A stretch of 64,000 bases of DNA, from positions 96,001 through 160,000 of the forward strand of contig JBMOPW010000044.1 in the NCBI GenBank assembly GCA_049322915.1. The letters are read 5' to 3'. Below are positions 20,688 to 48,652 of the stretch, one piece after another. Source of the stretch: Candidatus Zhuqueibacterota bacterium. Lineage in GTDB: Bacteria; Zhuqueibacterota; Zhuqueibacteria; Thermofontimicrobiales; Thermofontimicrobiaceae. The number at the start of each line of letters is the position of its first letter. Within the stretch, counting starts at the first letter, position 1. The translations under genes and the position numbers were made by a program. The notes below the pieces were generated by a model. It saw only the letters and a program-made list of their open reading frames with translations, was not told where the DNA came from and ran no database searches.

Positions 20688-23600
20688 ATGAAAAAACTTA
20701 CGATTGCCACTTTAATTATTTTGATTGGAAGCGGTGTTTCCCTGTCTCAGGCGCAAAAAAGGTTGGCGATTTTACAGCCAACTGAGCCGGGGAAGGTGAG
20801 CCGGGCTATCCCAATTGCCCAGGAAGAAGTTGACGATAAAGAACAATTGTTGAAAAAACTGGCCCAGGCGAAAATGCAATTTGCAGCGACTTCCGATGAT
20901 GCAATTTTCAGGGATTATAAAGGTGATAGCCTCAGTTTCTCGGTCAACGATACCGGCTTTGTTTATTTCGATCCCGGTGTTCCGTGCCGAATAAAGGAGA
21001 TTGGGCTGTTCACCCAAAAAGTAAACAATAAAATGGGAGATGGCTATTTTCTTTGGATCAAAAATTCCAACTGGCATGCGGATACGCCGCCGGACAGCAT
21101 CGATGAAAAAGGCTGGGCCGGCGTATGGAATGAGCACAAATCGTGGGAACCAAGTGACTGGGGAATTTACCCGACCGGGGCAGTGTTGTGGGGTGAATTC
21201 CCTGTCACTGCATTGGATGGCGGATGGTCATGGACGACTATGGAATGGCTGGGATATGAACCAGATGTGGGTTTGGATGATTTTTGTGTTGTCTTTTCTC
21301 CGTATGGCGATCCTGCTTATAAAACCGGCTTTCTGGCCAGCGATTCGTCCCAGTCGATGGAGCATCATACCTGGAAATACTTTCATCCGGCCAATGCAAT
21401 TCCCGGGCCGGACGGCGAGCATTACGGCTGGTTCCATCTCAGCGCCGGCCTGGCAATTTATGCCGTGGTGGAATATTACGGGATGGTGAACGAGCCGCCA
21501 ACCATTCTCCAGGCGACGCAACTCCGAAACACCCACTCCACTGGCCCATTCACCGTGAAAGCCCAGATTACAGACACCGATGAAGTCGATCCAGACCGCG
21601 CCGGCGTCCAGGCCGCATTCCTTGCCTATAGCACCGACGAAGGAGCGCATTTTGATTCAACGAGAATGAGCGAATCGGAACAGCCAAATTTTTATATTGG
21701 TCAAATTCCTTCGATGCCTTACGATACACAAGTCCACTATTATGTCAGCGCGTTCGATTCCAGCGGTTTGTACAGCCGTAAAACCCTCAATCCCTTCAGC
21801 ATTCAGCTTTTTCGAAAATTATCTATTGGCGAAGTGACCTCCGAAGCAAAAAGTTCGTCCGGCGCCAGTTGGGCTGATTATGACAATGATGGATATTACG
21901 ATCTTCTTGTCACAAACTGGTTCGGCGATAAAAACAGTCTGTTCCGCGGTGGGAGAAACGGCGCGTTCACCAGAATCACCGATTCTGATCTCGTCAATGA
22001 AGCGTTTCAGGCGACGAGCAGCCGCTGGGCCGATTTTGACAACGATGGCGACCTCGATCTATTTGTGACCAATGCCGGCGGCGATAATTCTTTGTATGAA
22101 AATAGAAATAGCGGCTCAAGCTTTTCGCGGATCATGTCCGGCAGCATCGTTCGCGACGGCGGAGCTTCCAATTCCTGCGCCTGGGGCGATTTTGATAATG
22201 ACGGTTTTGTGGATTTGTTTGTCGCCAATGGAAATGGCGAAAACAATTTTCTCTACCGCAACAATCACAATGGCACATTCACGAAAGTGACGGATGGCCC
22301 GGTCGTGAACGACGGCGGCAGTTCCACGGACGGCTGCTGGGGCGATTTCGACTCGGATGGCGATCTGGATTTGTTTGTGACAAACACGAATAACGAGCAT
22401 AATTTTTTATATCGAAATGAGGGACAGGGCGTATTCACTAAAATCAGCGATGGCATAGTCGTCAACGATTTTGGGATGTCCGCCGGGGCCAATTGGGTCG
22501 ATTTTGACAATGACCGGGATTTGGATTTGTTCGTCGTGAATTCGAACCAGCAATTCAATTGTTTGTACAGGAATAACGGCGACGGCGCGTTCACGAAAAT
22601 TACAGATGACATTGTCGTTTCCGACTGGGGCGATTCCCGCGGAAGCGCCTGGGCCGATGTGGACAAAGACGGCGACCTGGATTTGTTCGTCGCCAATGCT
22701 GGAAATCAACATAACTGTTTCTATCTCAATGTGGGAAATGGCGCATTTCAGAAACAGACGTCTTCGGAAATTGCCACTGACTATGGCCAGTCCACCGGCG
22801 TCAGTTGGTGCGACTTCGACCATGATGGGGATTTGGATTTATTCGTGACAAATGATAACGGCGAGACCAACGATTTTTACCAGAACCTGGGAACAGAAAA
22901 TAACTGGATCAATATCAAATTAGTGGGAAGCGAATCCAACCGGGCCGGAATCGGCGCTAAAGTTTTGGTAAAGGCAACCATCGACAGCAGCGAGGCGCGC
23001 TGGCAAAGGCGTGAGGTCTCCGGCCAGGCCAAGTCCAGCCAGAGCTGCATGAACGAAACATTCGGCCTGGGTGTTGCCACGGTTATCGATTCCATCTGCG
23101 TCCAGTGGCCTTCCGGAAAAATTCAGGTTTTGACCGATGTGGCAGTGAATCAGTTTTTAGAAATCAATGAAGCCGAGCCCATTTTCACGCGTGTCACGAG
23201 TGGGAATGTTGTCAACGATGGCGGGCTGTCTCTGGGTTGCAGTTGGGGCGACTACGATGGCGACGGCGACGATGATTTGTACGTTTGCAACGGCAGCAAA
23301 TTCGAAGATCGCCCGAACTTCTTCTACGAAAATAATGGCGACGGCATGTTCACGAGGATTGTTTCAGGTGCGATTGTTGAAGATAACAAGCGAACTTTCG
23401 GCAGCAGTTGGGCCGATTACGATAACGACGGCGACCTGGATTTGTTTGTGACAAATTATTATGGTGGCTACAATGCGCTCTTTACCAATGACGGAAATGG
23501 CAATTTTTCCCTGGTCGGCGGAAAAAAGCTGGCGACCAAAGGCTCCAATAACACGGCGTGCAGTTGGGTGGATTACGATAATGATGGCTTGCTGGACTTA

Positions 23601-25886
23601 TTGGCGACCGGCGTATACAGCCTTTTTGTGCTCCACAATGTGGGCAATGGCACGCTCGTGCCTGTCTCCTCATCTTCAATCTTCAACAATGATGAAGAAT
23701 CCCTGGGGTGCGGTTGGTCGGATTTTGACAATGACCGGGATGTGGATTTGTTCATTGTGAACAGTATGGAACACGATGCGATTTTCAGGAATGAAGGCGC
23801 AGGAATTTTTACGAGGGTAACGAACGGCGTCATTGTCAGTTTACCGACATTCTCAAACGGATGTAGCTGGGGCGATTATGATAACGATGGAAATATAGAT
23901 ATTTTTATTACGTTTGCTTACGGCCATAACAAGCTCTATCGAAACAACGGCTTTGGCGCGTTCACCCCGATCACAAAAGGCCCAATCGTGACAAAATCAC
24001 CGGCGATTTCAACCGGCAGTTGCTGGGGCGATTTCGACAATGACGGAAACCTTGACCTGTTTGTGGCGAATAATGGCAGCAATAATTATTTTTATTTGAA
24101 CCGTGGGGACGGCAATTTCACCGCGCTCGAAAGCGAGGCAGTCGTTTCTGATGGCGGGCTTTCCATGGCCGCGTGCTGCAGCGATGTCGATCTGGATGGC
24201 GACCTGGATTTGTTCGTTTCCAACGGCTCCAACCATGACGACCAAAATAATTTCTTGTACCTCAACAATGGGAATGAAAATAACTGGATTAATATCCGGT
24301 GTATCGGCCAAGTTTCCAACGTCTCGGCCATCGGGGCGAAAGTGAAGGTGATGGCGGAAATTCAGGGCAAACTGCGCTGGCAATACAGGGAAATTTCATC
24401 GCAAACCGGCTATTTGAGCCAGAACAGCCTGGTCGCTCATTTCGGGCTGGGCGCTGCTGAAAAAATCGATTCGGTGGTTGTGGAATGGCCCTCCGGTCTG
24501 GATCAGGTGCTGACCGATATTTCTGTGAACCAGCATGTGACGATTCTGGAAACATCATCCATCTCATCCGTCATCACCGCTGAAATTCCTGTGGTCGCAG
24601 CATTTGCCGGTGATACCATCCTCGTTCCGTTCAATGTCCGGTTACCGGATTATCAGCATGTCCGTTCAGCAGAAATCGAAGTGAACGGTTATTTTGGCAG
24701 CCTGTCCCTTCTGGATGTGACGACCGAAACCAGCCTCACGTGGGACGCCGGGTGGACATGTCAATTTAATGAATCAGATAGTGTGACTTCGGTCTGGCTT
24801 GCCGGCGGTGATGCCATTGCCGGGGCGGGCGCCCTGTTTTATTTCAAATTTTTCGTCCCAACCGACCTGGTCGGCTTTGTACCTATTTCTCTGAAATCTG
24901 CTGTTTTCGACCAGGGTCAAATTCAAGTGATCCGAAGATCCGGCGGCGTGAATGTGTTGCCTCCCATTGTTTATGGCGATGTGGATTTGAACGGCGCCAT
25001 TCAGGCGTTTGACGCGTCGCTTATTCTGCAATATCTCGTCGGGAAAGTCGAATTCACAGGTCAGCAACTATTGAACGCCAACGTCACGATCGATTCAACG
25101 GTTTCTGCGCTGGATGCGACCATGATTTTGAAGTACGGCGTCGGCCTCATTCCTGCTTTGCCGGCTGATTCAGCGGCGTGTGATGCGCCTGCCTCCGGTC
25201 AAATTTTTATGGCTGATCAGGAAGTGACGCAGGGCCAGGCCGTGCAGGTTCCGCTCGTGTTAAGCAACGGCCAGAATATTTTTTCCTTCGAAGGAAAGGT
25301 GAATTTCAATCCGGAATATTTATCACTTCGGGAAATTCAGTGGCCCGAGCCGATGGATAATTTCGCCCTGCAAATGAATGAAGCAAGCGGGGAACTCAAA
25401 ATTTCAGGCGCTGGGGCGCAAAGCACGATGGAATCCGGGCTGTTCGCCAATCTGAATTTTCTAGTGAAAGAAAACCTCGCAGTCGATTCCATCCTTGTCG
25501 CGCTGGAATACCTGCGCTGGAATGAAAATGAACCGGTTCAACATGCTGCCGCGGCGACCCTGTATTTCACGTCTTCAATCGATGAAAAAAATAATGATCT
25601 GCCCCTGACCTATGCGCTGAATCAAAACTACCCGAATCCGTTCAATCAACAAACGACCATTCATTTCTCTTTGAGAGACGCGGACAGAGCGCAGTTGATT
25701 GTTTACGATGAACGCGGCTGTTCCGTGCGAACGCTCGTGGATGAAAATAAATCGGCCGGGAATTACGTTGCGTTTTGGGATGGTAAAAACAACCTCGGTG
25801 AAAGCGTGGCCAGCGGCATGTACATCTGTGTATTGAAAATCGGGAAGAGTGTGCTGCTATCGCGGCGGATGCTGTTGATCAAATGA
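20688..25886 (+). CDS. Large secreted protein: two FG-GAP/VCBS propeller + ASPIC/UnbV modules, cohesin-dockerin-cohesin, C-terminal FlgD/T9SS-type sorting domain
   Basis: Many WxDxDNDGDLDLFVxN repeats; two 'NNWINI..N..IGAKV..FGLG..WPSG' modules; dockerin YGDVDLNGAIQAFDASLIL; LNQNYPNPFN..WDGKN..ASGMY. Confidence 0.88.
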   Translation: MKKLTIATLIILIGSGVSLSQAQKRLAILQPTEPGKVSRAIPIAQEEVDDKEQLLKKLAQAKMQFAATSDDAIFRDYKGDSLSFSVNDTGFVYFDPGVPCRIKEIGLFTQKVNNKMGDGYFLWIKNSNWHADTPPDSIDEKGWAGVWNEHKSWEPSDWGIYPTGAVLWGEFPVTALDGGWSWTTMEWLGYEPDVGLDDFCVVFSPYGDPAYKTGFLASDSSQSMEHHTWKYFHPANAIPGPDGEHYGWFHLSAGLAIYAVVEYYGMVNEPPTILQATQLRNTHSTGPFTVKAQITDTDEVDPDRAGVQAAFLAYSTDEGAHFDSTRMSESEQPNFYIGQIPSMPYDTQVHYYVSAFDSSGLYSRKTLNPFSIQLFRKLSIGEVTSEAKSSSGASWADYDNDGYYDLLVTNWFGDKNSLFRGGRNGAFTRITDSDLVNEAFQATSSRWADFDNDGDLDLFVTNAGGDNSLYENRNSGSSFSRIMSGSIVRDGGASNSCAWGDFDNDGFVDLFVANGNGENNFLYRNNHNGTFTKVTDGPVVNDGGSSTDGCWGDFDSDGDLDLFVTNTNNEHNFLYRNEGQGVFTKISDGIVVNDFGMSAGANWVDFDNDRDLDLFVVNSNQQFNCLYRNNGDGAFTKITDDIVVSDWGDSRGSAWADVDKDGDLDLFVANAGNQHNCFYLNVGNGAFQKQTSSEIATDYGQSTGVSWCDFDHDGDLDLFVTNDNGETNDFYQNLGTENNWINIKLVGSESNRAGIGAKVLVKATIDSSEARWQRREVSGQAKSSQSCMNETFGLGVATVIDSICVQWPSGKIQVLTDVAVNQFLEINEAEPIFTRVTSGNVVNDGGLSLGCSWGDYDGDGDDDLYVCNGSKFEDRPNFFYENNGDGMFTRIVSGAIVEDNKRTFGSSWADYDNDGDLDLFVTNYYGGYNALFTNDGNGNFSLVGGKKLATKGSNNTACSWVDYDNDGLLDLLATGVYSLFVLHNVGNGTLVPVSSSSIFNNDEESLGCGWSDFDNDRDVDLFIVNSMEHDAIFRNEGAGIFTRVTNGVIVSLPTFSNGCSWGDYDNDGNIDIFITFAYGHNKLYRNNGFGAFTPITKGPIVTKSPAISTGSCWGDFDNDGNLDLFVANNGSNNYFYLNRGDGNFTALESEAVVSDGGLSMAACCSDVDLDGDLDLFVSNGSNHDDQNNFLYLNNGNENNWINIRCIGQVSNVSAIGAKVKVMAEIQGKLRWQYREISSQTGYLSQNSLVAHFGLGAAEKIDSVVVEWPSGLDQVLTDISVNQHVTILETSSISSVITAEIPVVAAFAGDTILVPFNVRLPDYQHVRSAEIEVNGYFGSLSLLDVTTETSLTWDAGWTCQFNESDSVTSVWLAGGDAIAGAGALFYFKFFVPTDLVGFVPISLKSAVFDQGQIQVIRRSGGVNVLPPIVYGDVDLNGAIQAFDASLILQYLVGKVEFTGQQLLNANVTIDSTVSALDATMILKYGVGLIPALPADSAACDAPASGQIFMADQEVTQGQAVQVPLVLSNGQNIFSFEGKVNFNPEYLSLREIQWPEPMDNFALQMNEASGELKISGAGAQSTMESGLFANLNFLVKENLAVDSILVALEYLRWNENEPVQHAAAATLYFTSSIDEKNNDLPLTYALNQNYPNPFNQQTTIHFSLRDADRAQLIVYDERGCSVRTLVDENKSAGNYVAFWDGKNNLGESVASGMYICVLKIGKSVLLSRRMLLIK

Positions 25887-26750: not shown

Positions 26751-27848
26751 TCATTCGTTTTTTTTGACGGGATCGGTCTCCGCCAATAGCGGATAGTCCA
26801 CCCTGCCCTGGGTCAGATCCGTCCGGCAACTGGGGCAGAAATTCCAGTCCGATTTAATGGGATACTGGCATTGCGGGCAAAATGTTTTGGATACATCGAA
26901 TCCGCAGTAGGGACAGAACGCTTTGGTGCCGTTCAGCTCTTTTTCGCACTGAGGACAAAAAAGCGACTTCGTCGTCTGCGGCCGGGTGAGCAGATAAATG
27001 ATCAATCCGAATGGCCCGGAAATGAGCGCTAAAAACGCCCAGAGGCCGGTGTTTTTGACATCGCGCTGCTGGGAATCGATGTACACCCACGTGGGCAGCA
27101 GGAACCAGAGAAACACGCCGGATAAAAAGAGCAGCACACCCAAAATTGGTTCAAGGACAGAATAGATGTCATTTTTTTCCAATCTATATTTGCTGTAATA
27201 CATTTCATGATTTACGGTATCATCGACCTTCAAATATAAGGTACCGATAATATTTCCTGTTTGGTCTGTAATTGGCGATTTTAAAACGAACCAGCTTACT
27301 TTGGAATGCCACCACTGATCCGGTTTTTGATCGTTATAGTATCGCCACTCGTTAGTCTCGAAATTTGTTTTGCTACTATTATCAAAATCAGAAAAATCAA
27401 TTTGGTCATATTTATTTATTAGTTTTTCTAAAAAATCAAGACGACTCCGATAGTATCCATCAGACTCAATTACATCAAAGTATTTGTCATAAGCCGAAAT
27501 GAGCCTGGCAAATGAAAAAGACGGGACACCGAAAATAAAAGCTCCCTGAGTTTCCATCCACAGATATTTTTTAATCGTATTTACCCGTTGATGTTCCTGT
27601 GTATATTTTGAATCCAGTTCCTGAATGATGAGCTGATCAACCGGATATTTCGTGATTGTCTTTGCAATTTCATCGAGATAATTTTGATTTTCTTCGATTA
27701 ATGCTGAGAAGTGGTCTTCCAGTTTTTGCTGGTGTTTTTTGTAATTCCAATTTCGATAGGGGATAGAGAGAATCAATAGAACAAAAGCAATAAAAAAAAT
27801 GATTCCGGCAATGGAACCAGATTTGTGGATTATTTTTTTTCGTTTCAT
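26751..27848 (-). CDS. Membrane protein with C-terminal double zinc ribbon
   Basis: TM helices, WVYIDSQQR..LW..GLIIYLLTRP, four CPxC motifs. Confidence 0.8.
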   Translation of the reverse strand: MKRKKIIHKSGSIAGIIFFIAFVLLILSIPYRNWNYKKHQQKLEDHFSALIEENQNYLDEIAKTITKYPVDQLIIQELDSKYTQEHQRVNTIKKYLWMETQGAFIFGVPSFSFARLISAYDKYFDVIESDGYYRSRLDFLEKLINKYDQIDFSDFDNSSKTNFETNEWRYYNDQKPDQWWHSKVSWFVLKSPITDQTGNIIGTLYLKVDDTVNHEMYYSKYRLEKNDIYSVLEPILGVLLFLSGVFLWFLLPTWVYIDSQQRDVKNTGLWAFLALISGPFGLIIYLLTRPQTTKSLFCPQCEKELNGTKAFCPYCGFDVSKTFCPQCQYPIKSDWNFCPSCRTDLTQGRVDYPLLAETDPVKKNE

Positions 27849-27934
27849 TTTACCCTCGTGTTAGTTAAGATTATTGGGTAGACGCTAACAAGCATTGAAT
27901 GCTTTGATACGTCTGGTGTGATATCTTTCCCAGG

Positions 27935-28052
27935 TCATTAATGACGTGGCTACTCAATCGAAAAAAATTAAAAGTGAGATAACCTGAATAGCCCCGACTT
28001 TTAAGTCGGGGAACAGAAATTTACCTTTGATTTTAGGCGTTAGCCCCTTATT
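27935..28052. repeat. REP-like palindromic repeat, copy A
   Basis: CCCCGACTT-TT-AAGTCGGGG hairpin; inverted homolog at 34690-34806 shares a 37-bp identical core. Confidence 0.8.
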
Positions 28053-28071
28053 AGAGTGGACTGATTATAGA

Positions 28072-28578
28072 TTACATATATTCAGTTGAAATTACCCTGA
28101 TATATTTTTGTTGATCGAAGATTAAAATTGGCGCGAGACAAAGTGTAATAAATGTACTAAAACAAAATAAAAAGAAAATGACTGTCCCGAAACTGCCGAT
28201 AGTTTGAATGAGCCAATTTTGTTGCAATATCAACCAAAGTTCAGTCCTTGTTAATTCATGCTGTAATATATAAATAGAAAACAGGATAAACATAATTGCA
28301 AATGCGAATTCGAAAAGTGGAAGAATCGGGATGGTGGATTTCTCGGTGATTGGAATCGGTTTTTCCTGTGGCAGTCCCGCCAAAATTTTGTCGAATGTGT
28401 CGCTGGCTGGCGCCTTGTCCTGCAAATTGTTCAGCAAAGCACCTGTCTCGTTCAGAATGGAAATGTATTCTCTGCACTGGCTGCACGCTTTGAGATGGCC
28501 TTTCACTTTTGCTTTCTGTTTGTTGGAGAGTTCGTTGTAGAAAAAAGCAGTCAGTTCATTTTTATTTGGATGACTCAT
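28072..28578 (-). CDS. Zinc-binding (zf-HC2) transmembrane anti-sigma factor
   Basis: H..HLKACSQC motif, two C-terminal TM helices, directly behind an ECF sigma gene. Confidence 0.85.
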   Translation of the reverse strand: MSHPNKNELTAFFYNELSNKQKAKVKGHLKACSQCREYISILNETGALLNNLQDKAPASDTFDKILAGLPQEKPIPITEKSTIPILPLFEFAFAIMFILFSIYILQHELTRTELWLILQQNWLIQTIGSFGTVIFFLFCFSTFITLCLAPILIFDQQKYIRVISTEYM

Positions 28579-28581
28579 GAT

Positions 28582-29196
28582 TCACCTTTGAATGGATGCA
28601 TCATTCAGGTCAGAGGGCGCTAAGATTTCCCGAAGCTGCGATATGGCGCGATGGAATCTGGCTTTGAGCGTGCCTTCGGGGGTTTCTGTAATCTCGGCAA
28701 TCTCTTTGAATTTCAATTGTTGAAAATGCTTCATGACGATGATTTCCCGCAGGACAGGACTGAGCTGTCCCAGCGCTTCGCCAATGACGTGTTTCAGATC
28801 GGACTGTTCGCTTGAATGATCCGGCAGCTCGCCGTGACTGTCCGCAATCTCATCCTGCCCTTCGTTCATTGCAGTGACATCCAGATAATGATAATCGTAG
28901 CGTTTTCGCGACAACTCATTTCGTGTCAGATTCAGCGCAATTTTCAGCACCCATCCTTTGAAATTGCCATGCATCAGATTGAATGTGTGCGCAGCCACCC
29001 AGACGCGGGTGAATGTCTCCTGCAGCAAGTCCTGAGCAAGTTCCCGGTTGCCGCTATATTTCAGGATGAAGTTGAAAATGAACAGTTCATACCGACAGTA
29101 AATAACCTCGAAGGCGCGGGTATCTCTATCGATGACACGTTTCATGAGTTCTTTGTCAGTATTCTGTTCCATTTTCTCCCAATCGATCTGCATCAC
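28582..29196 (-). CDS. ECF RNA polymerase sigma factor
   Basis: AQDLLQETF..FKGWVLKIALN; region 4 FKEIAEITETPEGTLKARFHRA. Confidence 0.92.
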   Translation of the reverse strand: MMQIDWEKMEQNTDKELMKRVIDRDTRAFEVIYCRYELFIFNFILKYSGNRELAQDLLQETFTRVWVAAHTFNLMHGNFKGWVLKIALNLTRNELSRKRYDYHYLDVTAMNEGQDEIADSHGELPDHSSEQSDLKHVIGEALGQLSPVLREIIVMKHFQQLKFKEIAEITETPEGTLKARFHRAISQLREILAPSDLNDASIQR

Positions 29197-31150: not shown

Positions 31151-31188
31151 AAAAAAAAGCTCTCTGTTAGGGTAGAACAGAGAGCTTT
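31151..31188 (-). terminator. Rho-independent terminator of the lexA unit
   Basis: 13-bp stem AAAGCTCTCTGTT / AACAGAGAGCTTT with a T8 tail on the minus strand. Confidence 0.9.
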
Positions 31189-31275: not shown

Positions 31276-31497
31276 CTAAGCTGCAACTTTATTGGCGTTT
31301 TCCAAATGCTCAATTCGCTCTTCCAGAATTTCCTGAATTTCGATCATCTCCATGGACATGAGAACTCGTCCCATCGATGTCCGCAATTCCCCATAGAGCA
31401 CATCGATGTTGTCAAGGTATGTTTTCAATCCGGCTAAATCGTTGGAGTTGAGCAATAGTTTTTTCCAATCGGAAAAATTTTTAATTCGCTTTTGCAT
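31276..31497 (-). CDS. Small helical hypothetical protein downstream of lexA
   Basis: 73 aa, strong RBS AAGGAGG, amphipathic/coiled-coil pattern. Confidence 0.7.
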   Translation of the reverse strand: MQKRIKNFSDWKKLLLNSNDLAGLKTYLDNIDVLYGELRTSMGRVLMSMEMIEIQEILEERIEHLENANKVAA

Positions 31498-31517
31498 GGC
31501 GGGTGCCTCCTTGAAAC

Positions 31518-31535
31518 GGGTAAGCTTGTACCCTG
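31518..31535 (-). promoter_or_regulatory. Putative LexA operator, site 2
   Basis: Minus strand CAGGGTACAAGCTTACCC (GGGTA-N6-TACCC) between the lexA stop and the RBS of the small ORF. Confidence 0.65.
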
Positions 31536-32171
31536 TTAATGAGTTCGATGTATAACAGCTTCGACCCGACCAAGAACTTTGAAATAGAGATCATTCTTGC
31601 TGATCATTATCGGCTGAAAAGCCGGATTCTCGGGTTGAAGTCGGATGAAATCACTTTCCAGAAAAAACCGTTTGACGGTTGCTTCTTCATCCAAAAGGGC
31701 AACAATGATTTCATTGTTTTCCGGGAAGTGTTTTTGTTTGACAAAGATCAAATCGTTATGATTGATGTGGGCGTCCTTCATGCTTTCTCCCGAAACGCGG
31801 AGAATGAAATCCGCATCGATCCCCAGGATGCGGGTGTTCACGGTGAAATAGCCTTCGATGTTCTGTTCGGCAAACAGAGGACTCCCGGCTGCGACGGTCC
31901 CCAGAATTGGGATTATTTTTTCTTCGCCATCGTGCAGAGAACGCTTCTGAACGACTTCGATGCAACGGGCGCCACCGCGCAGATTTCGTTTTATGTAACC
32001 TTTATTTTCAAGAACATTCAAAATTCGCTGGACATTATTCACAGACGCATATCCCATTATCGCCATGATCTCCCGAATCGACGGCGGAAAACCATGCTCA
32101 TCCATAAATTGGATGATGGAATTTAAAACACTGTTTTGTGTTTCAGTGATCGGTTGAGTCATAGTTTCCAT
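31536..32171 (-). CDS. lexA: LexA transcriptional repressor
   Basis: wHTH (GFPPSIREI), cleavage site VAAG, catalytic GESM and ATVKR. Confidence 0.95.
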   Translation of the reverse strand: METMTQPITETQNSVLNSIIQFMDEHGFPPSIREIMAIMGYASVNNVQRILNVLENKGYIKRNLRGGARCIEVVQKRSLHDGEEKIIPILGTVAAGSPLFAEQNIEGYFTVNTRILGIDADFILRVSGESMKDAHINHNDLIFVKQKHFPENNEIIVALLDEEATVKRFFLESDFIRLQPENPAFQPIMISKNDLYFKVLGRVEAVIHRTH

Positions 32172-32178
32172 GGGATAA

Positions 32179-32226
32179 AGGGTAAAAATGTACCCTGAAT
32201 ATACAAAAAAAAATTTTGCTTGTCAA
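32179..32226 (-). promoter_or_regulatory. lexA sigma70 promoter with overlapping palindromic operator (site 1)
   Basis: TTGACA-N17-TATATT (32226-32198), followed directly by CAGGGTACATTTTTACCCT (palindrome 32179-32196). Confidence 0.8.
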
Positions 32227-33949: not shown

Positions 33950-34012
33950 GGTCTTTCGTTCGGGAATTGGGTGAGTTACGGATGCCCAAAGACTTGCTCA
34001 TCGTAAGCATCC

Positions 34013-34027
34013 GCAATTCTTGTACCA
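34013..34027 (-). promoter_or_regulatory. sigma54 (-24/-12) promoter
   Basis: Minus strand TGGTAC-AAGAA-TTGC (GG-N10-GC), about 64 nt upstream of 33949. Confidence 0.65.
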
Positions 34028-34286
34028 GTAGTAATGAGCTGCATTACCACTTAAAAAGCAAGGAATTAAAAGAATGCGATGGAGCTTTTCAATTAAAAGT
34101 TAATGAGTTATAAGAATAATCAAATTGAGAATTGAAATATTTGTTACATTTTAAAACAAGCGTTCATTGCCATGGAACAGCGTGGTTCAATCGGTCGCAT
34201 GAAAATTAAGAAAGGCGGTACTCGCTCTCGTTGAATTGCCAGGGGGCATGGAATCGATCACGGAGCGAATTGCTGGCCGTGGCAGC

Positions 34287-34689
34287 GGACAGGGATTTTT
34301 TAGATTGAATTTATTTGAAGTTGCATCGTATGAAATAGAACGCGGATAACACAGATGACACGGATTTTCGCTGATTTTTTGCCTTGATCTGTAATGGAAA
34401 TTCAAATAAATTTTGGCGGTTAAAAATGGATAAGCTATTGTAATGAGATTGAAAACCGAGTAATTCACATCTCATATAGCAACCGATTTTTAAATCATTT
34501 AAAATTGAAAGCTTAAAAACCGGGTTTAAAACTAAACTGCCAAATCTTCTTTTACCTTTTGGGGTTAGCTTATATTAAATAAGTTTGTTCATAACTTAAC
34601 TCATTGTTAATCAGCGTTATCCCCGCTTAGCGGGATCGTCCGCGTTCTATGAAATGGTCAAATAAACAACGCTTGAAAAATCCCTGTCC
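34287..34689. repeat. About 400-bp element bounded by long imperfect inverted repeats
   Basis: Both ends read GGACAGGGATTTTT..TTTATTTGA..ATAGAACGCGGA..CGCTGATT inward. Confidence 0.7.
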
Positions 34690-34806
34690 AATAAGGGGCG
34701 GAAGCCCAACAATCAAAGGTGAATTTCTGTTCCCCGACTTAAAAGTCGGGGCTATTCAAGATGTCTAACTTTTAACTTTTTCAAGGAATTGCCACGTTAT
34801 TTATGA
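34690..34806. repeat. REP-like palindromic repeat, copy B (inverted relative to copy A)
   Basis: Reverse complement aligns with 27935-28052. Confidence 0.8.
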
Positions 34807-35480
34807 TGTGGATCAAAGTCGTTTAAGGCTTTTTAGAGTCGACCCGGGAATGAAAATGAAATTGACATCTTCTTGTAACTTCGTGGCTTGGTGACCTTGA
34901 GGCAAGAATACACGCCTGAATAGTGACAAAATACTTGATTTATTTTTTTGTTTTAACTATATTAAAAAGCCTGATAGCAACAACAGGTTTCTTGCCCGGT
35001 GCACAACGCAAAAGATGCACGATCCGGCGTAACCCTGAAGGAGCAGCCGATGTTGAACCCCCAAATTTTCTGGAATATTGTCGCTCTCTTTTTCGCACTA
35101 CATGCCATGCCACTCGCCGCATCTCCAACCTTGATGTTTCCCGAAAGCGCTGATATAAATACTGTTTTTAAACAGGAATCGTCTCATGAGTCTGCCATAA
35201 ATCCCTGTGGAAGCCGGGTCGTCCCGGCGATTTACCGACTGGACTTTGGGCGCGAAAGGGAGCGTTCGCGCCGGGGCCGGACTGCTCCATTCGCGTCATT
35301 CAGGGTGAATGAGATGCGCGGTGAAATTGTTTCGTCGCTTCCTCAATGGGTCTCTGGCCGAAGCGCTATCGCATTGTTTTCAGACAGCGGCACGGAAAAA
35401 GGCGCGTGCAAATGACCGCTCGAAAATCCGGGGATGAGCGACATTGTCGCATTCAGTTCGAAGATAGCTAATGAACATAG

Positions 35481-35641
35481 CCTGCATTGTTCATAGTATT
35501 TTTAAAGGAGGCTGGCTAACCTGAATGGTGCTCTTTTTAGAATAAACGTATAAAAACTGAGTTACAAAATAGCTTAGTTTTTAGCTAATTGAAAATCTGA
35601 ATGTTGACTCAAATTCTGAGCAAGTTCATGAATAATTCAGG
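35481..35641. mobile_element. 161-bp MITE, copy 2, with 4-bp target-site duplication ATAG
   Basis: ATAG|CCTGCATTGTTCAT...ATGAATAATTCAGG|ATAG. Confidence 0.9.
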
Positions 35642-35691
35642 ATAGATGAATAAATTCACTCAATTTACTCGTGCAAAATGGAGGATAGAGC

Positions 35692-38685: not shown

Positions 38686-38772
38686 AATAGATGGGTAAAA
38701 TAGCCCCGGATTTTGAACGGTGTAAAAAGCTATCAACTTATTGGTGAGCAGAGTTTCTGCCAGGTCATTTTT

Positions 38773-39237
38773 ATGCATGCGAATGAAGTTGACAAAACAG
38801 TGGAACTGACGATAATAATATTTAAAGTGGGCGAAAAGTTGTTCGGACTGAGCAGCACCGATGTGGTCGAAGTGCTGCCCATCCTCGAATTATTCGATGC
38901 CGGTGAACCTACCGAGGCCTATGACGCGGTGTTCAATCTGCGCGGAGAGATCATTCCTGCGCTGAACCTGAAGCGGCGATTCGGCGCGGACGACGGTCAT
39001 TTCGAAATCTGGAATAACATTCTGGTGGTCGAAAATGCCGGCGTGAAATACGGGCTGATCGTTGAGAAAGTGCTGGATGTGGTTACCTTCGATCCGGCAA
39101 TCAAACGAGCAGAACTGCACTGGACTCGGCTGAACAGAAATGAGGTGTTCAATTGGGGGCATTCGGTCGTTGCCATGCTCAACCTGAAAGACGTTTTGAA
39201 AAAGGCGAAACTCGCGCAATCTACGGAGGCAGTGTGA
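38773..39237 (+). CDS. cheW: CheW scaffold protein
   Basis: FGL..VVEV, FNLRGEIIPALNL, GLIVEKV. Confidence 0.85.
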   Translation: MHANEVDKTVELTIIIFKVGEKLFGLSSTDVVEVLPILELFDAGEPTEAYDAVFNLRGEIIPALNLKRRFGADDGHFEIWNNILVVENAGVKYGLIVEKVLDVVTFDPAIKRAELHWTRLNRNEVFNWGHSVVAMLNLKDVLKKAKLAQSTEAV

Positions 39238-40754
39238 TTCGAACTTCAGAGTCATTGTTTTTTCGTTTGAAAGAATTAATCGCCGGTAAAATAGGTTTGA
39301 ATATCAACGAGCGCAAACTGGACGAACTGGAAAAGGCGTTGCTCAAAGGATTCTCGAACTCTCAGTATTCCAGTTTGCAGGAATACATGTCCTGGCTGAC
39401 GCGGATCCCGATTTCGAGCCCGGATTGGCGCAGCCTGATAGAAATTCTGACGGTGAACGAAACCTATTTTTTTCGAAATGCACCCCAGCTTGAGTCGCTG
39501 CGGTCGGTGATTTTCCCGGCGATCATTGATGCGAAGCGCCAACGAAACCGGCGGGAGCTTCGTGTCTGGAGCGCTGGTTGCGCTACCGGTGAAGAGCCCT
39601 ACTCCATCGCTATAATGCTGAGCGAGATTCTGCCTGATTTTAGAAAATGGAACATCTTCATCCTGGGGACTGACATCAATCATTCATCCCTGGAAAAGGC
39701 AAAGGCCGGATTCTATCGCGAGTGGTCTTTCAGGGACGTGCCGCAACGGATTAAGAGCGAATATTTCACGCCGCAGGATGGGGGATTGGTCATTCGGCCG
39801 GATATTCAGCAGATGGTGACTTACAATTATCTGAATCTGGTCGAGAATTGTTACCCTTCATTCTACAATCAAACGACAGATATGGACATCATCATCTGTC
39901 GCAATGTGATGATCTATTTTTCGAATCCTACCTCCGAGCGGGTGATCGAGCGGTTTTACCAGACGCTGGATACGAACGGCTGGCTGCTGGTGGGCCATTC
40001 TGAACCCATGACCATGCTTCCCCATAATTTCGCCACCGTCAATATTCAGGACGCCCTGTTTTATCGCAAACCTGATCCCCTATCCGCGAAAGAGAAATCA
40101 GCCCATTCCGTGGTTGCGCCCTGGAAAAGCGGTGAGTCAGCGATGCGCTCTCCGAAATCACGACAAGGGAATTCCCACGCGGAAAAGAAAATCCGAACGG
40201 TAGGGAGATTGAATGCATCCCCATCGAATCCATCGCGCCAGCAACAGCACGCCGAGGACGTGTCCGAAGTGAACAAGCTGGTGGCTGCCGGAAAGTGGCA
40301 GGAGGCGATACAGACATTGACGCTCAAAATTCAGGCGCGCCCGGAAAAGGTGGACTATTACCTGGACATTGCCAAAATTTATGCGAATCAGAAAATGCCG
40401 GACCAGGCGCTGCGTTGGTGCGAGAATGCGCTGGAAAAGGACAGGAGTTATCTTCCTACCTATTTCATCACCTCGCTCGTGTACCAGGAACTCAATCGGT
40501 TCGCCGATGCAGAGCGGTTGCTGAAACAGGCGCTGTACGTGAACCAGGATTTCCTGTTCGGCCATTTTCATCTGGCCATGTTGTATCAAAAGACCGGCGA
40601 TTTGAATAAAGCAAAAAAAATATTTTCGACTATCCAGCGCCAGCTTGCAGAATTGTCCGGGACGGATAAATTGATTTGCAGCGATGGATTGACAGTCGAA
40701 CAAATGTCGAAGCTTGTTTCGACCTATACTGGAAAATTGGATCAATCGGGATAG
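39234..40754 (+). CDS. cheR: CheR methyltransferase with C-terminal TPR (WspC-like)
   Basis: TVNETYFFRN, WSAGCATGEEPYS, GTDIN, CRNVMIYF, GHSE; TPR helices; GTG start overlaps the cheW stop. Confidence 0.92.
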   Translation: MIRTSESLFFRLKELIAGKIGLNINERKLDELEKALLKGFSNSQYSSLQEYMSWLTRIPISSPDWRSLIEILTVNETYFFRNAPQLESLRSVIFPAIIDAKRQRNRRELRVWSAGCATGEEPYSIAIMLSEILPDFRKWNIFILGTDINHSSLEKAKAGFYREWSFRDVPQRIKSEYFTPQDGGLVIRPDIQQMVTYNYLNLVENCYPSFYNQTTDMDIIICRNVMIYFSNPTSERVIERFYQTLDTNGWLLVGHSEPMTMLPHNFATVNIQDALFYRKPDPLSAKEKSAHSVVAPWKSGESAMRSPKSRQGNSHAEKKIRTVGRLNASPSNPSRQQQHAEDVSEVNKLVAAGKWQEAIQTLTLKIQARPEKVDYYLDIAKIYANQKMPDQALRWCENALEKDRSYLPTYFITSLVYQELNRFADAERLLKQALYVNQDFLFGHFHLAMLYQKTGDLNKAKKIFSTIQRQLAELSGTDKLICSDGLTVEQMSKLVSTYTGKLDQSG

Positions 40755-40766
40755 TTGTGAACGGTC

Positions 40767-41336
40767 ATGAATGTGAATAAAACCAAACCGGCAGCGATTG
40801 CCAGGCCTGATGACGATCAAATGCTGCTTGAGACAATTCTGCGACAGCGGGCCTGGAATTACTCTCAAATCAAGACTATCGGCAAGCCTTCGCCGGGGAC
40901 AATCCGGGTGGTGCTGTTGTTATTTGGGGATGAAAAATATGGCCTTGAAGTTCGCTACGTCAAAGAGGTGGTGCCTCTGCGCCAGTTGACGCCGGTGCCA
41001 TGCACGCCGGATTTCGTCACCGGAATTATCAATGTCCGCGGAACCATTATTTCCACGATTGATATGCGCCGGTTTTTCAATTTAAAGACGACCGGCCTCA
41101 CCGACTTGAACAAAGTCGTGGTGATTAAATTCGGCGATTTCGAAATGGGGATTTTGGCCATGGATGTCTCCGAAGTGAAAAACATTCAGCTCGAAGATTT
41201 GCACCCGGCGGCCGGTTGCCTGACTGAGATTGATCCGGAATATATCAAAGGCGTTTCGAATAAAATGGAAGTGATTCTCGATCTGAAAAAGCTGATCGAA
41301 GAACAGCGATTTGTCATCAGCGAAGAAGTTGAATGA
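40767..41336 (+). CDS. cheW: CheW scaffold protein (WspD-like N-terminal extension)
   Basis: ILRQRA.., LTPVPCTPDFVTGIINVRGTI. Confidence 0.9.
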   Translation: MNVNKTKPAAIARPDDDQMLLETILRQRAWNYSQIKTIGKPSPGTIRVVLLLFGDEKYGLEVRYVKEVVPLRQLTPVPCTPDFVTGIINVRGTIISTIDMRRFFNLKTTGLTDLNKVVVIKFGDFEMGILAMDVSEVKNIQLEDLHPAAGCLTEIDPEYIKGVSNKMEVILDLKKLIEEQRFVISEEVE

Positions 41337-41390
41337 AACGCGGACACAGCGGGGGAGAGATGATTGCACGCTTGAAAATTGAGACAGCGC

Positions 41391-43049
41391 ATGAGCGAAA
41401 TTGAGCAAAAAAAAATTCTTGTAGTGGACGACAGCCCCACGCAGACAATGGTGTTGAAGATTGGACTGGAGCAGGCCGGCTTCTGCGTCGTGACGGCTGG
41501 CGACGGCATGGATGGCGTCAGTCGCGTGTACGAGGAAAGCCCGGACATCGTTGTGTCGGACATTGTGATGCCGGAATTGAATGGCTATCAACTGTGCCGG
41601 CTGATCAAAAACGATCCGCAGCTCCACAATATTCCCGTCATTCTGCTCACCAATCTGGGTCAGCAGCAGGACCGTTTCTGGGGCAGGGAGGCCGGCGCCG
41701 ATTTTTACGTGGTCAAGGATCGGGATTTGTCCCCATTGCTGGAGACTATTCAGAAATCGGTGGCATTGACGCGGGAAAAATCCGTCGACGAGATGAGCCG
41801 GGGCAGTCACCATGCAGTCACCAGTGAGGGAGTAAAAAATAAACTAAACCTGCTGCTGGATGATCTGCTTTTCGAATCCACCATTGCCAGCCGAATCCGC
41901 GAAATCGCGCGTTTCGCCTATGACACCGAAGCGCTGATGGAAAACCTGTTCTCGCTGCTTTCGGATCTTCTGGACGCTTCGATTTCCTGTCTGGCGGTTG
42001 AAGAGGGCGACTTCATTGCCGTGCATATCAACCTCACGAAGCACTATGACGACCGAATCATCGACCAGGTGAAACGCGACGTGGTGGGGGCTTTCCGCAA
42101 TGCCGATCGGAAATTGAAGGTGAAAATTTATGGCGACAGCGAGCCTTGCTCCCGGAGCCAGATGCCTGTCTTGCAGTCGAAACTGGTCTTTCCATTTCCG
42201 GTGAATGAAGACATCCATGCGGCAATGGCGCTTTTCGACGAGAGAGATGGGCTGTACAAAGGCAAAACGCTGGGACTGGTGAAGAAAATTTGCACGGAAC
42301 TGCACATGCTGATTTCATACGTGGCCAAGCTGAACGAGATCGAAAAGATCAAAGCGGACTTCACCTCGATGATTGTGCACGATCTGCGTTCGCCAATGGC
42401 CGGCGTGTTTGGATTGCTGCAGCTCATGCGCCAGGATCGGATTGGGCCGGTCAATGAAAAACAGCGTCAGACCCTCTCTCAGATTCTCGGGACCATCAAT
42501 AAATTGCTGAACCTTGTCAACGATATGCTCGATGTATCCAAGCTGGAATCGGGTCGGCTGGATGTTGTCCCTAAAAAAATCGATTTCAATGAAGTGATCG
42601 CCGAAGCGCTGGGCAACGTTGAAATTTTGGCCGAAGAAAAGCAGATCGAAATCCGGCTGGAAAATTTTTCACATCCTATGTTTGTTCTGGGCGATGCGCT
42701 GCGGTTGGAGCAGGTGATGATTAATCTTCTCTCCAATGCCATCAAGTTTTCGCCGGAGAACAGCCAGATTGTCATTCAAGGCCAGGCGCTTGAAGATCCG
42801 GATCAAGCGAATGGCTGGCTGAAGGTGAGCGTTCAGGATTCTGGCATCGGGATCGAGGAGGGGAGCCGCGAGATAATATTTGAAAAATACCGCCAGACCA
42901 TGAAAGGCAACTCGAAGGCGGCCAAAGGCACCGGGCTGGGGTTGGCTATTTGCCGGATGATTGTTCAGGCGCATGATGGTAAAATTTGGGTGACCAGTCA
43001 GGAAGGACAGGGCAGTACATTTTCGTTTACTGTGCCCCTCATTCAATGA
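41391..43049 (+). CDS. Hybrid REC-(GAF-like)-histidine kinase within the chemosensory operon
   Basis: REC VDDS..SDIVMP; VHDLRSP; NAIKF, DSGIG, GTGLGL. Confidence 0.9.
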
Positions 43050-43068
43050 GCAACTGTTCGAGGTAAAA

Positions 43069-44682
43069 ATGAACGAGTATTTGATGCTTTTCTTTGTATT
43101 ACTAATCAGCTACGGTCTTTTGACTGTTGCGGTCAATCGAATTTACAAATGGCGATTGATTACCAAATTCACGGTGGCGACCCTGCCGGCGGTTGGCATC
43201 ACCGTGATGCTGTCCTATATGTTCGGCAGAAGCCAGCTCAACTGGTGGAACGGCCCGACCCTGCCGCTGCTGGGCGTATCGTGCTGGATGCTGGCCATCT
43301 GGATCATGGTGCGGAATATTTCTATCCCGCTTCAAAAGATCAAAGATGCTGCGCAGCGGGCGGCCGATGGCGATTTGAATGTGCAACTTCACATTCAGGG
43401 CAATGATGAAAGCAGCGAACTGGCCGATGCGTTCAATCGCATGGCAGAAAATATTCGCGGCATGATGGAAGTTGAACGCCGCATGCGGAACGAATTGGAA
43501 GAGACGGTCAAGCGCTACGTCGATTTTGTCGCTGAAGTCGGGAAAGGAAAACTCGACATCAAGCTGGATGTTACGGCGAGCAATAATATGGGCATTCTGG
43601 GCGAACACCTCAATCAGATGGTGCTGAAACTTCGCGACTATACCGCGGAGATCGAGCAGAGCGGAAGCGTGGAGCGCAAGAACAAAGAAAAGCTGCAATT
43701 TACGATTGAGGAGTATCTGAGATTTATTGAACGAGTTTCCAAAGGCGATCTGCGCGGGCGCATTGAACTGACCGGCATCAATGGTCTGTCGGAAATGGGA
43801 AGTTATTTGAACAATATGGTCTCCAATCTGAAAGAATTGGCCCTGCAAAATCAACTGGCAGCGGATGAATTGGCCAGAGCGACGAGCGAGATTACCTCGG
43901 CGGCGTCGGAGCAGGTGAGCAGCGCCAACGAACAGATGGCGTCGGTGAACGAGACGTCCACCTCGGTGGATCAATTGAAGCAATCGGTGCAGCAGTCGGC
44001 TGACCGCGCCATGATGGTTTCGGATCTGGCGAAGAAATCGACCGAGATTTCTGAAAATGGCCGATCAGCCGTGGAAAAGACCGTCGACAGCATGGAGAAA
44101 ATTAAGGAGCAGATGGAGATCATCAATGAAACCATTCTGAATTTGAGTGAGCAGAGCCAGCAGATTGGCGACATCATCACTTCGGTCAACGAGATTGCTG
44201 AGCAATCCAATCTATTGGCGCTGAATGCCGCCATTGAAGCAGCGCGCGCCGGGGAGCATGGCAAGGGATTTTCTGTGGTTGCCGCGGAAGTGAAAAATCT
44301 CGCTGACCAATCCAAAGAAGCCACCATTCAGATCCGCTCGATTTTGAGTGATATTCAGAAGAACAGCGAACGGGCGGTTTTGGTCACGGACAAAGGCAGC
44401 CATCTTGCGCAGGAAGGGGTGGAAATGGTGCATCAGGCTGGCGCAACGATTCAACATCTGGCAGAGACCATTTCGCAATCGGCGCAGGTGACGTTGCAGA
44501 TCGTCTCTTCCTCCGGCCAGCAAGCCCGCGGCATCGACCAGATTTCCATCGCCATGGAACAGATCAATCAGGCGACCAATCAAAACGTGGTCAGCGTCAG
44601 CCAGATGGAAAAAGCAGCGGAAAACCTGAATCAGTTGGGGATGCGATTGCACGATCTGGTGAAAATGTATCAGATCGGGTAG
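43069..44682 (+). CDS. Methyl-accepting chemotaxis protein with integral-membrane N-terminus and tandem HAMP domains
   Basis: [37 protein letters not shown]; three hydrophobic helices; three HAMP-like repeats. Confidence 0.93.
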
Positions 44683-44795
44683 CCCGTGGGGAAGCGCCGC
44701 AGGAGGCGATTGTTGCCGCAGACCATTCAGACGGAGGCTTCATTTCATTCGATATTCTTGCAACGCACACACAACATTTTCAAAATTGACAGCGT

Positions 44796-47132: not shown

Positions 47133-47149
47133 GGTAGCGTAACAAGACA

Positions 47150-48178
47150 ATGATTAAAGTGCTTATCGTGGATACCTCACCTGTTTCGAGATTTGTCGTT
47201 CGAAAAGTTTTGGAACGGGATGAGAATCTGAAAATCGTCGGGGAGGCTCGAAATGGCAAGGAAGCGTTAGAATTGATTTCTCATTTCAAACCTGATATTG
47301 TGACGATGGATATTAGCAACCCGGACACGGAAGGTCTGGAGACGACGAAGCGAATTATGCAGGATGCTCCAATTCCTATCATTGCTGTAACCGAGCCGCA
47401 CGATACAAGTGTGAAGCATGCCATTCAAGTGATCCAGGCCGGCGCACTCACTGTGGTTGAAAAGCCGGATCAATTTTTGTTGAATGATGCGAACGCGGCT
47501 GGCAAAAATCTGATCAATTCCATTAAAACGCTATCCGAAGTAAAAGTCGTACGCCGCTGGAATGATACTCGATTGCACCCGAATGGCAAACCGATACGGC
47601 ATGGCGCTTTAAAATCCTCCATCGAAATAATTGGCATTGCTACTTCGACCGGCGGTCCCAATGCTCTTGCCAAGCTCCTCAATCAACTTCCAGACGATTT
47701 TCAAATACCCATTGTCATTGTTCAGCATATCATGAAAGGCTTTGCTGCAAATTTTGTCACCTGGCTGGCAAGTGTCACCGGGCATCATGCGAAGCTGGCT
47801 GCGCAGCACGAACTCATTCAGAAAAACCATGTCTACATTGCGCCGGATGATTACCATTTAACGGTGAATCGGTTCAATCGGCTGGTGTTGAGCAGCGATG
47901 GGCCGGTGAAAGGGCACCGTCCATCGGCCGATTATTTGCTGTTTTCCATTGCCAAAAATTATGGCGAACGCGGAATGGGTATCATTTTAACCGGCATGGG
48001 AGACGATGGGGCCGAAGGTATGAAGGCCATCAAAGATGCGGGAGGATTGACCATCGCTCAGAACAAGGACAGTTCTGTCATTTTTGGCATGCCCAGCGAA
48101 GCGATCAATCTGAACGCTGTCGATAAAGTTGTGTCCATCGATAAGATCGGCGAAACTATTTTCAATCTCACCAAATAG
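47150..48178 (+). CDS. cheB: CheB methylesterase
   Basis: REC plus TSTGGP, VQHI, HRPSAD, LTGMGDDGA. Confidence 0.95.
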   Translation: MIKVLIVDTSPVSRFVVRKVLERDENLKIVGEARNGKEALELISHFKPDIVTMDISNPDTEGLETTKRIMQDAPIPIIAVTEPHDTSVKHAIQVIQAGALTVVEKPDQFLLNDANAAGKNLINSIKTLSEVKVVRRWNDTRLHPNGKPIRHGALKSSIEIIGIATSTGGPNALAKLLNQLPDDFQIPIVIVQHIMKGFAANFVTWLASVTGHHAKLAAQHELIQKNHVYIAPDDYHLTVNRFNRLVLSSDGPVKGHRPSADYLLFSIAKNYGERGMGIILTGMGDDGAEGMKAIKDAGGLTIAQNKDSSVIFGMPSEAINLNAVDKVVSIDKIGETIFNLTK

Positions 48179-48187
48179 GAGTCTGCG

Positions 48188-48652
48188 ATGAAGAATGTTC
48201 TTGTCGTTGAAGATGAAGAAGATGTGTTGAATATATTTTCAGAGCAGTTGAAACTGTGGGGATATAATCCGGTCATTGCCAGCAGCGGCGCCGAAGGGCT
48301 GAAAAAATTCAATGAAATGCCTATCGATTTAGTCATTTCCGATATAAAAATGCCGGGCATGGATGGCATTACCCTGCTCCAGAAAATCCTCAAAAAAGAT
48401 AAAGATGCAATTATCATTTTGGTCACCGGTTACCCTTCAATCGATACGGCAGTGCAGTCCATGAAGGACGGCGCATTCGATTACCTGACCAAACCGCTTC
48501 ATATTGGCGAATTGAAAATCAGGATCGAGCGCGCTCTGGAAAAGAAGCGGCTGCAAAAATCGCTGGCGCTGTGGAAGGGAGTCAATTGGTCGCTGATCAT
48601 TTCAGTCCCTCTCTGGCTGATTCTGGGCATCATTTTAGCTCGATTGCTGTAG
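48188..48652 (+). CDS. Response regulator receiver with C-terminal transmembrane helix
   Basis: Intact REC (VEDE, SDIKMP, TKP), then WSLIISVPLWLILGIILARLL. Confidence 0.85.
   Translation: MKNVLVVEDEEDVLNIFSEQLKLWGYNPVIASSGAEGLKKFNEMPIDLVISDIKMPGMDGITLLQKILKKDKDAIIILVTGYPSIDTAVQSMKDGAFDYLTKPLHIGELKIRIERALEKKRLQKSLALWKGVNWSLIISVPLWLILGIILARLL

Follow-up and report, generated by a model that had tools for sequence, protein, structure and literature searches.

Autoregulation of lexA is the rule across bacterial phyla, and 17 LexA-binding motifs had been reported as of 2021 (PMC8565304). In E. coli, the SOS box is given as CTG(TA)5CAG or, in its longer form, TACTG(TA)5CAGTA (PMC3091678; PMC9578287), and the LexA-DNA complex is represented by the structure 3JSO. 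The cyanobacterial box is described by the Nostoc PCC 7120 consensus RGTACNNNDGTWCB and by the general cyanobacterial consensus AGTACWNWTGTACT (PMC3091678). The Gram-positive box, typified by B. subtilis, is CGAACN4GTTCG (PMC9578287), the alpha-proteobacterial motif is GTTCN7GTTC (PMC3091678; PMC9578287), and the motifs listed for Geobacter and Bdellovibrio are GGTT-N10-AACC and TTAC-N3-GTAA, respectively (PMC8565304). In the Balneolaeota, the motif TTACACATATTTTWTACATA was validated by electrophoretic mobility shift assay and assigned a defined regulon (PMC7739468). A literature search, with subscription journals and supplements outside its coverage, found no publication on the LexA of candidate division KSB1 or of the Zhuqueibacterota. 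Here we describe a palindrome, GGGTA-N6-TACCC, that stands on either side of lexA in a 64,000 bp stretch of DNA from a Candidatus Zhuqueibacterota bacterium (contig JBMOPW010000044.1, positions 96,001 to 160,000; hereafter the window), and which is very probably the SOS box of KSB1, the operator to which LexA, encoded by the intervening gene, would bind as a dimer.

The palindrome on either side of lexA

An exact search of the window for the 16-base pattern returned two matches, at 32180-32195 (box 1) and at 31518-31533 (box 2), whose forward-strand letters are GGGTAAAAATGTACCC and GGGTAAGCTTGTACCC, respectively. In 100 dinucleotide-preserving shuffles of the window, the mean number of exact matches was 0.01 and none of the shuffles (0/100) reached two. 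On the reverse strand, which is the strand of lexA, both copies read CAGGGTACA-N3-TTACCC. An earlier note on this DNA had reported the palindrome as occurring twice and in this extended form, with one copy behind a near-perfect lexA promoter and the other behind the lexA stop codon, and these descriptions were all borne out (Table 1); the promoter TTGACA-17-TATATT (32226-32198) matches 11 of the 12 consensus positions. When one mismatch was allowed, a third site appeared at 47977-47992, inside a cheB-like open reading frame (ORF), against 0.39 expected. With no more than 8.5 bits on the matrix described below, it is treated as a chance occurrence. A relaxed search, GGTA-N6-TACC with one mismatch, was uninformative, giving 9 matches in the window against 6.1 expected.

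Related loci were collected by a profile search of genome contigs, employing an alignment of 20 LexA proteins of the clade as the query. The search yielded 13 loci from metagenome-assembled genomes which, together with the window, make up a comparison set of 14 sequences. Twelve of these loci extend beyond lexA, while one (L013) stops inside the gene, and counts for box 2 are accordingly out of 13 sequences, the window included. The LexA proteins of the 13 loci share 57-80% amino acid identity with the window LexA. More broadly, about 100 protein clusters are 57-94% identical to it, and beyond them identity falls to 47% or less. The source names of these clusters, where given, are "candidate division KSB1 bacterium" or simply "bacterium".

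Box 1 follows the lexA promoter in all 13 fetched loci and in the window (14/14). The earlier note had named absence of the motif in front of orthologous lexA genes as the outcome that would speak against its reading; the opposite was seen. The promoters themselves are of the TTGAC[AT]-17-TATATT type, 12 of the 14 scoring at least 10/12. Box 1 keeps the same position and the same arms throughout, with positions 1-9 and 12-16 invariant at 2.0 bits, and in the window it begins 2 nt after the -10 hexamer and scores 28.7 bits on the matrix. If transcription began some 7 nt past the -10, as is usual, its first base would lie within box 1. The proposal in the earlier note that the box covers the transcription start therefore stands as far as the placement of the box is concerned, while the start site is a predicted rather than a mapped one. 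In one locus (L004:107-1201), a transposase of the Mutator family lies directly upstream of the lexA promoter, and both promoter and box are intact there.

Box 2 was found behind the lexA stop codon in all 12 loci that reach past the gene and in the window (13/13). Its arms are exact in 10 of the 12 loci as well as in the window (11/13), and carry a single mismatch in L011 and L012. The window copy scores 22.3 bits.

The site matrix was built from all 27 sites (14 of box 1 and 13 of box 2) over 17 columns, and was scanned against both strands of 196,327 bp, comprising the window and the 13 loci. The consensus of the 27 sites is A-GGGTACAT-N3-TACCC. The left arm includes G1, G2, G3 and T4, each present in 27/27 sites, and A5 in 25/27; it is preceded by an A at position 0 in 21/27 and followed by C6 (24/27), A7 (26/27) and T8 (24/27). 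Positions 9-11 are variable, although every one of the 14 box 1 sites has a T at position 9. The right arm T12-A13-C14-C15-C16 is present in 27/27 at each position. The 27 sites score between 18.0 and 29.5 bits, whereas the best unrelated position reaches 11.1 bits, and the exact pattern occurs in the 196,327 bp solely at the box 1 and box 2 positions. The non-coding columns beside the boxes carry 0.05-0.7 bits per column, as compared with 2.0 in the arms, and the neighbouring genes vary between loci on both sides (dcd, a transposase, aminotransferases, and others). The diverged flanks, the varied neighbours and the uniqueness of the sites together indicate a clean phylogenetic footprint rather than residual similarity among related contigs.

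Table 1. Coordinates of the lexA unit and its predicted control elements in the window
Feature	Position	Strand	Remarks
-35 hexamer TTGACA of the lexA promoter	32221..32226	-	TTGAC[AT] in 14/14 loci; spaced as TTGACA-17-TATATT
-10 hexamer TATATT of the lexA promoter	32198..32203	-	ends 1-3 nt before box 1 in 14/14 loci
Box 1, predicted LexA operator on the lexA promoter	32180..32195 (extended footprint 32180-32196)	.	(-) strand A-GGGTACATTTTTACCC; exact palindrome arms
lexA, 211 aa from the first ATG	31536..32171	-	LexA_DNA_bind, Peptidase_S24, TIGR00498
Box 2, second predicted LexA operator	31518..31533	.	(-) strand A-GGGTACAAGCTTACCC; 2 nt past the lexA stop, 20 nt before the small gene
Shine-Dalgarno AAGGAGG of the small gene	31506..31512	-	GGAGG-like sequences before the small ORF in other loci too
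Conserved 73-aa gene, all-helical product	31276..31497	-	downstream of lexA; C-terminus ...KVAA
Intrinsic-terminator-like hairpin closing the unit	31156..31188	-	13-pair stem, 7-nt loop, T run; about 88 nt past the small-gene stop

LexA as the predicted ligand and the alternatives

Judged by its sequence, the gene between the two boxes is a canonical lexA. The product contains the Pfam domains LexA_DNA_bind (PF01726; E value 3.5e-16, residues 6-63) and Peptidase_S24 (PF00717; E value 1.7e-29), and scores 181.2 bits against the TIGR00498 equivalog, for which the cutoff is 110.95. It aligns end to end with the structures of E. coli LexA (E value 1.7e-32) from residue 8. The motifs VAAG (A95-G96), GESM (S130) and TVKR (K167) align with A84-G85, S119 and K156 of the E. 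coli protein, in the numbering of PMC3091678. The protein was filed as LexA because both domains, the Ala-Gly site with the Ser/Lys pair, and a score above the equivalog cutoff were all found. The reading frame has two in-frame ATG codons (METMTQ...), at 32171 and 32162. The orthologues begin at the second, which suggests that the real start may be at 32162 and the annotated start 9 nt too far upstream. Neither ATG is preceded by a strong Shine-Dalgarno sequence, unlike the small gene downstream.

The recognition helix of the window protein, SVNNVQRIL, aligns with SPNAAEEHL of E. coli LexA. With respect to the five residues of this helix that contact DNA in E. coli (PMC3091678), the Ser and the Asn are kept, and three are changed (A42 to N, E44 to Q, and E45 to R). 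Among 104 clusters of the clade, 87 carry SVNNVQRIL, 11 carry SVHNVQRIL and 3 carry SVYNVQRIL, the remaining 3 falling outside the pattern used, while 16 more distant matches carry other helices, the next relatives being 39-47% identical. Within the sequences compared, SV[N/H/Y]NVQRIL is thus specific to the KSB1 clade, and the helix that the earlier note had called atypical is present as described there. L002 has the His variant, with the arms of its boxes unchanged. As both the box and the helix are nearly invariant, the relationship between them is one of co-conservation, not of covariation.

The identification of the palindrome as the SOS box, which the earlier note had put forward as an inference, finds support in its position, symmetry and conservation across the 14 loci, and it is on these three properties that the predicted operator status rests. 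A 16-bp dyad of the size expected for a LexA dimer overlaps the lexA promoter in 14/14 sequences, and within the clade sharing the helix (101/104 clusters) box 1 is conserved in 14/14 and box 2 in 13/13. According to this reading, a LexA dimer on box 1 would block RNA polymerase at the strong sigma-70-type lexA promoter, giving classical negative autoregulation. This block would be lifted after DNA damage, when RecA stimulates LexA to cleave itself at Ala95-Gly96 (Ser130/Lys167). Box 2 would most likely add a second layer of repression, acting on the small gene; it may be a roadblock to basal read-through from lexA, or else the operator of a weak promoter hidden within the 3' end of that gene. 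By either route, synthesis of the small protein would be confined to times of LexA depletion, and its C-terminal tail, which resembles a ClpX-type degradation signal, would render it short-lived once repression returns.

Several observations weigh against this interpretation. The dyad is imperfect, in that the right half lacks a counterpart to the C6-A7-T8 of the left. Relative to transcription, this asymmetry points the same way in 14/14 box 1 sites and in 10/13 box 2 sites (it is flipped in L011 and L012, and L009 has neither form), and the CAT asymmetry could reflect constraints of the promoter or start site rather than of a repressor. Within the 196,327 bp scanned, the motif was confined to the unit of lexA and the small gene, and a Pfam screen of the 36 ORFs of the window and 84 ORFs of the loci identified no recA, uvrA/B, dinB, umuDC or imuAB-dnaE2; this outcome has no bearing, in either direction, on a wider regulon. 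The one repair-type gene of the window, on the reverse strand at 53262-55523, encodes a DEAD/Helicase_C helicase with an MrfA-like Zn-binding domain, and has no box upstream. In the LexA proteins of two loci (L008:2800-3420 and L010:1453-2073), the Ala-Gly site is replaced with Pro-Asp (KPD or TPD) and the Ser with His or Gln, while the Lys is kept. This sub-lineage accounts for 4 of the 104 clade clusters (P0081, P0084, P0086 and P0088), and LexA of this type is probably not self-cleaving. Nevertheless, L008 and L010 keep both boxes and the small gene despite the loss of the cleavage site and Ser, so that the operator is not tied to a cleavable repressor. Finally, with regard to box 2 as the operator of an internal promoter, A/T-rich -10-like hexamers, partly built from the stop codon, abut the box, and 7 of 13 loci reach 8/12 promoter matches (random positions: 11%). 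The sequence before box 2 in the window reaches 6/12, and the promoter scan detected no internal promoter there; for the window copy, a roadblock to read-through is favoured on sequence grounds over an internal promoter.

A palindrome found at one unit only, with no link to a wider SOS regulon, and persisting in L008 and L010 beside an apparently non-cleavable LexA, might instead serve a regulator other than LexA, one with control over both lexA and the small gene. We regard this as improbable, given that no second DNA-binding protein is consistently encoded nearby and that the neighbours vary. The small protein, which is acidic to neutral and helical, matches no DNA-binding family or fold. 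Moreover, the clade has conserved the LexA helix along with the box, and autoregulation is the norm described for lexA (PMC8565304). It is also conceivable that the element acts as RNA, forming a 5-bp GGGUA/UACCC hairpin that would be a signal for processing, stability or weak termination, both at the start of the lexA mRNA and between the genes. The arms can pair, the sole arm change (L011 and L012 have G for A5 in box 2) keeps a G-U pair, and a T run follows the box 2 hairpin in these same two loci. The 27 sites, however, contain no compensatory changes, and the invariance of the arms (G1-T4 and T12-C16 in 27/27) argues for recognition that is sequence-specific rather than shape-specific. 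The box 2 region folds no better than its shuffles (z = -0.39; 65 of 200 fold as well), no Rfam family matches, and at box 1 the stem is unlikely to form because the box starts 2 nt after the -10, which implies that the transcript probably begins inside the left arm. An RNA element is accordingly very hard to credit.

The remaining explanation would dispense with a protein site altogether, and would attribute the conservation to core-promoter features (the discriminator or the initial transcribed sequence) or to shared ancestry. Box 1 abuts the -10, and its asymmetric CAT at positions 6-8 together with the invariant T9 could represent start-site context. Yet the same arms recur past the lexA stop, at a distance of about 660 bp, in a place where roughly half of the loci have no good promoter. 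The right arm TACCC, although it lies 12 nt into the element, varies no more than the left one does. The neighbouring non-coding columns are saturated with change, and the LexA proteins are only 57-80% identical. We consider the likelihood of this explanation to be very slight.

The second box, the small gene and their surroundings

The unit reads in the order promoter, box 1, lexA, box 2, small gene, terminator. The conserved small gene behind box 2, which the earlier reading had overlooked, follows lexA in all 13 sequences that reach that far, including L009, where it lies 179 nt past box 2. In two loci box 2 departs from the common form (L011:870-895 and L012:10640-10665); here it is flipped, carries the A5 to G arm change for which a G-U pair is possible in RNA, and is followed by a T run. 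The small gene in these loci starts 39-51 nt beyond box 2, rather than 5-21 nt, and their box 2 may double as a weak terminator.

The small protein belongs to a KSB1-only family of 121 clusters, found together with LexA of the KSB1 type and named at source either "hypothetical" or by a prefoldin guess. No Pfam family (E value up to 10) or NCBIfam family (E value up to 1) reaches its cutoff. The matches obtained were weak ones of coiled-coil type, such as Prefoldin_2, which scored 14-23 bits, under the cutoff of 27.6. The AlphaFold2 (AF2) model has four helices and a mean predicted local distance difference test score (pLDDT) of 91.1. A Foldseek search of this model against the PDB gave no matches at an E value of 0.001 or below, and the protein atlas offered no usable feature match, generic helical look-alikes being the only ones returned. 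Prediction of a complex between LexA and the small protein scored 0.00 in both runs, which were made without controls, a result that speaks neither in favour of binding nor against it.

C-terminal LAA and VAA tails mark proteins for recognition by ClpX; the ssrA tag is one example, and the N-terminal fragment left by LexA cleavage is another. The window LexA, if cleaved, would end in ...TVAA. In the small-protein family, 118 of 120 members end in Ala-Ala, with VAA in 83 and IAA in 16. Because this near-invariant tail resembles the known ClpX signals, we infer by analogy that the small protein would be a short-lived, damage-induced effector with a degradation-type (V/I)AA terminus. A literature search found nothing joining LexA, ClpXP and VAA. 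A small, lineage-restricted protein encoded beside the gene for an SOS repressor is likewise found in Acinetobacter, where DdrR accompanies UmuDAb (PMC11332147); the likeness drawn here is one of gene position only, and does not extend to a comparison of sequence or fold.

We speculate further that KSB1 possesses a phylum-specific SOS module, in which two operators bracket lexA and the second gates a ClpX-labile 73-aa effector with a (V/I)AA tail, serving as a damage checkpoint or as a modulator of LexA or RecA. In the sub-lineage where LexA has lost the cleavage site and Ser, the small protein or another factor would take over induction without self-cleavage, giving an SOS-like circuit in which the operator is retained. 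As a whole, this scheme is rather unlikely.

The surroundings of the unit contain a number of other features. Near lexA, on the reverse strand at 26751-29196, is a trio of genes encoding an extracytoplasmic function (ECF) sigma factor, a protein of about 166 aa with no family, and a double-zinc-ribbon protein. The same trio directly follows the lexA-small gene unit in three loci (L002:1768-4160, L003:1889-4207 and L004:2479-5105). A complete chemotaxis cluster occupies the forward strand at 38713-48652, and includes CheW, CheR-TPR, a second CheW, a hybrid kinase, a methyl-accepting chemotaxis protein (MCP), CheA-CheW-receiver, CheB, and a CheY-like protein. Very large FG-GAP/ASPIC-UnbV proteins with cohesin, dockerin and FlgD-Ig domains are encoded on the forward strand at 20688-25886 and at 59944-62535, and also in L001 (8218-11442). 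Cohesin and dockerin on integrin-like repeat proteins are unusual cellulosome-type modules, and they recur in this related locus. A region of about 1.7 kb (33950-35690) contains short ORFs only, with no tRNA, tmRNA or Rfam match, and the 64,000 bp of the window as a whole yielded no Rfam matches and no tRNAs.

Comparison with described LexA boxes

By its sequence, the KSB1 box equals none of the published LexA motifs with which it was compared, the nearest being the cyanobacterial box. As the cited accounts describe it, the latter likewise lies upstream of lexA and has a GTAC ... TAC core, its tetramers four bases apart, in a 14-bp frame. The KSB1 core bears a close likeness to lexA sites listed for Synechococcus, for example GGTACAAATGTATT (PMC3091678). 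When the KSB1 element is read as GGTAC-N4-DTACC and the 27 sites, in their listed orientation, are compared by eye with the Nostoc consensus, one site has no mismatches, 21 have one, four have two, and one has three. The assertion of the earlier note that the box matches none known therefore survives in that no identical motif was found, but has to be qualified in view of a core this close to the Nostoc consensus, with 22 of 27 sites at one mismatch or fewer. There are also differences. Invariance in KSB1 falls on the outer G1-G3 and C14-C16, positions on the margin of the cyanobacterial 14-mer or outside it. The right-hand GTWC of the cyanobacterial consensus begins with a G that no more than 4 of the 27 KSB1 sites possess, and the flanks are G/C in KSB1 as opposed to A/T in cyanobacteria.

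The E. coli box resembles that of KSB1 in being a 16-bp dyad that has an A/T-rich middle and in which either end specifies 4-5 bases. It also overlaps the lexA promoter, and is bound by a dimer of the winged helix-turn-helix-S24 type, as is predicted for KSB1. The E. coli-type motif CTGT-N8-ACAG was nonetheless rejected as a description of the KSB1 sites, in which the arms are GGGT and ACCC in 27/27; the outer bases are GG/CC where E. coli has CT/AG, and only the GT ... AC at positions 3-4 and 13-14 is shared. The E. coli lexA gene has two boxes, both of them upstream, unlike the KSB1 gene with one on each side. In the Verrucomicrobia, the box is TGTTC-N4-GAACA. Both this and the Gram-positive box have the tetramer-N4-tetramer geometry in common with KSB1, but in the latter the tetramer is GTAC rather than GAAC or GTTC, and extra invariant G/C flanks are present. 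The Geobacter box has an outer GGT ... ACC like that of KSB1, yet spans 18 bp as compared with 14-16 bp and differs in the spacing of its half-sites. The Balneolaeota, like KSB1, are placed in the Fibrobacteres-Chlorobi-Bacteroidetes (FCB) group. Their motif was likewise deduced from the lexA promoters of poorly studied genomes and contains TACA(T) units, but it is a 20-bp direct repeat, whereas that of KSB1 is a 16-bp dyad.

LexA is unusual among global regulators in that its binding motif has changed repeatedly, and each new motif helps to trace the survival of the regulon. The KSB1 box would add a predicted LexA motif for an uncultured phylum, and the site matrix would allow the SOS regulon to be predicted in KSB1 genomes from their DNA alone. 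As its product ends in a degradation-type tail and an operator apparently gates it, the small gene offers a concrete candidate for an SOS effector not described before. Also of interest are the layout in which two putative operators bracket lexA, and a LexA sub-lineage that appears unable to cleave itself. With respect to the known boxes, the KSB1 element would bridge two geometries: its GTAC-N4 core recalls the cyanobacterial box, and the 16-bp frame around this core, in which the ends are specified, recalls the E. coli box. The three changes in the recognition helix (A to N, E to Q, E to R) thereby become directly testable as determinants of specificity.

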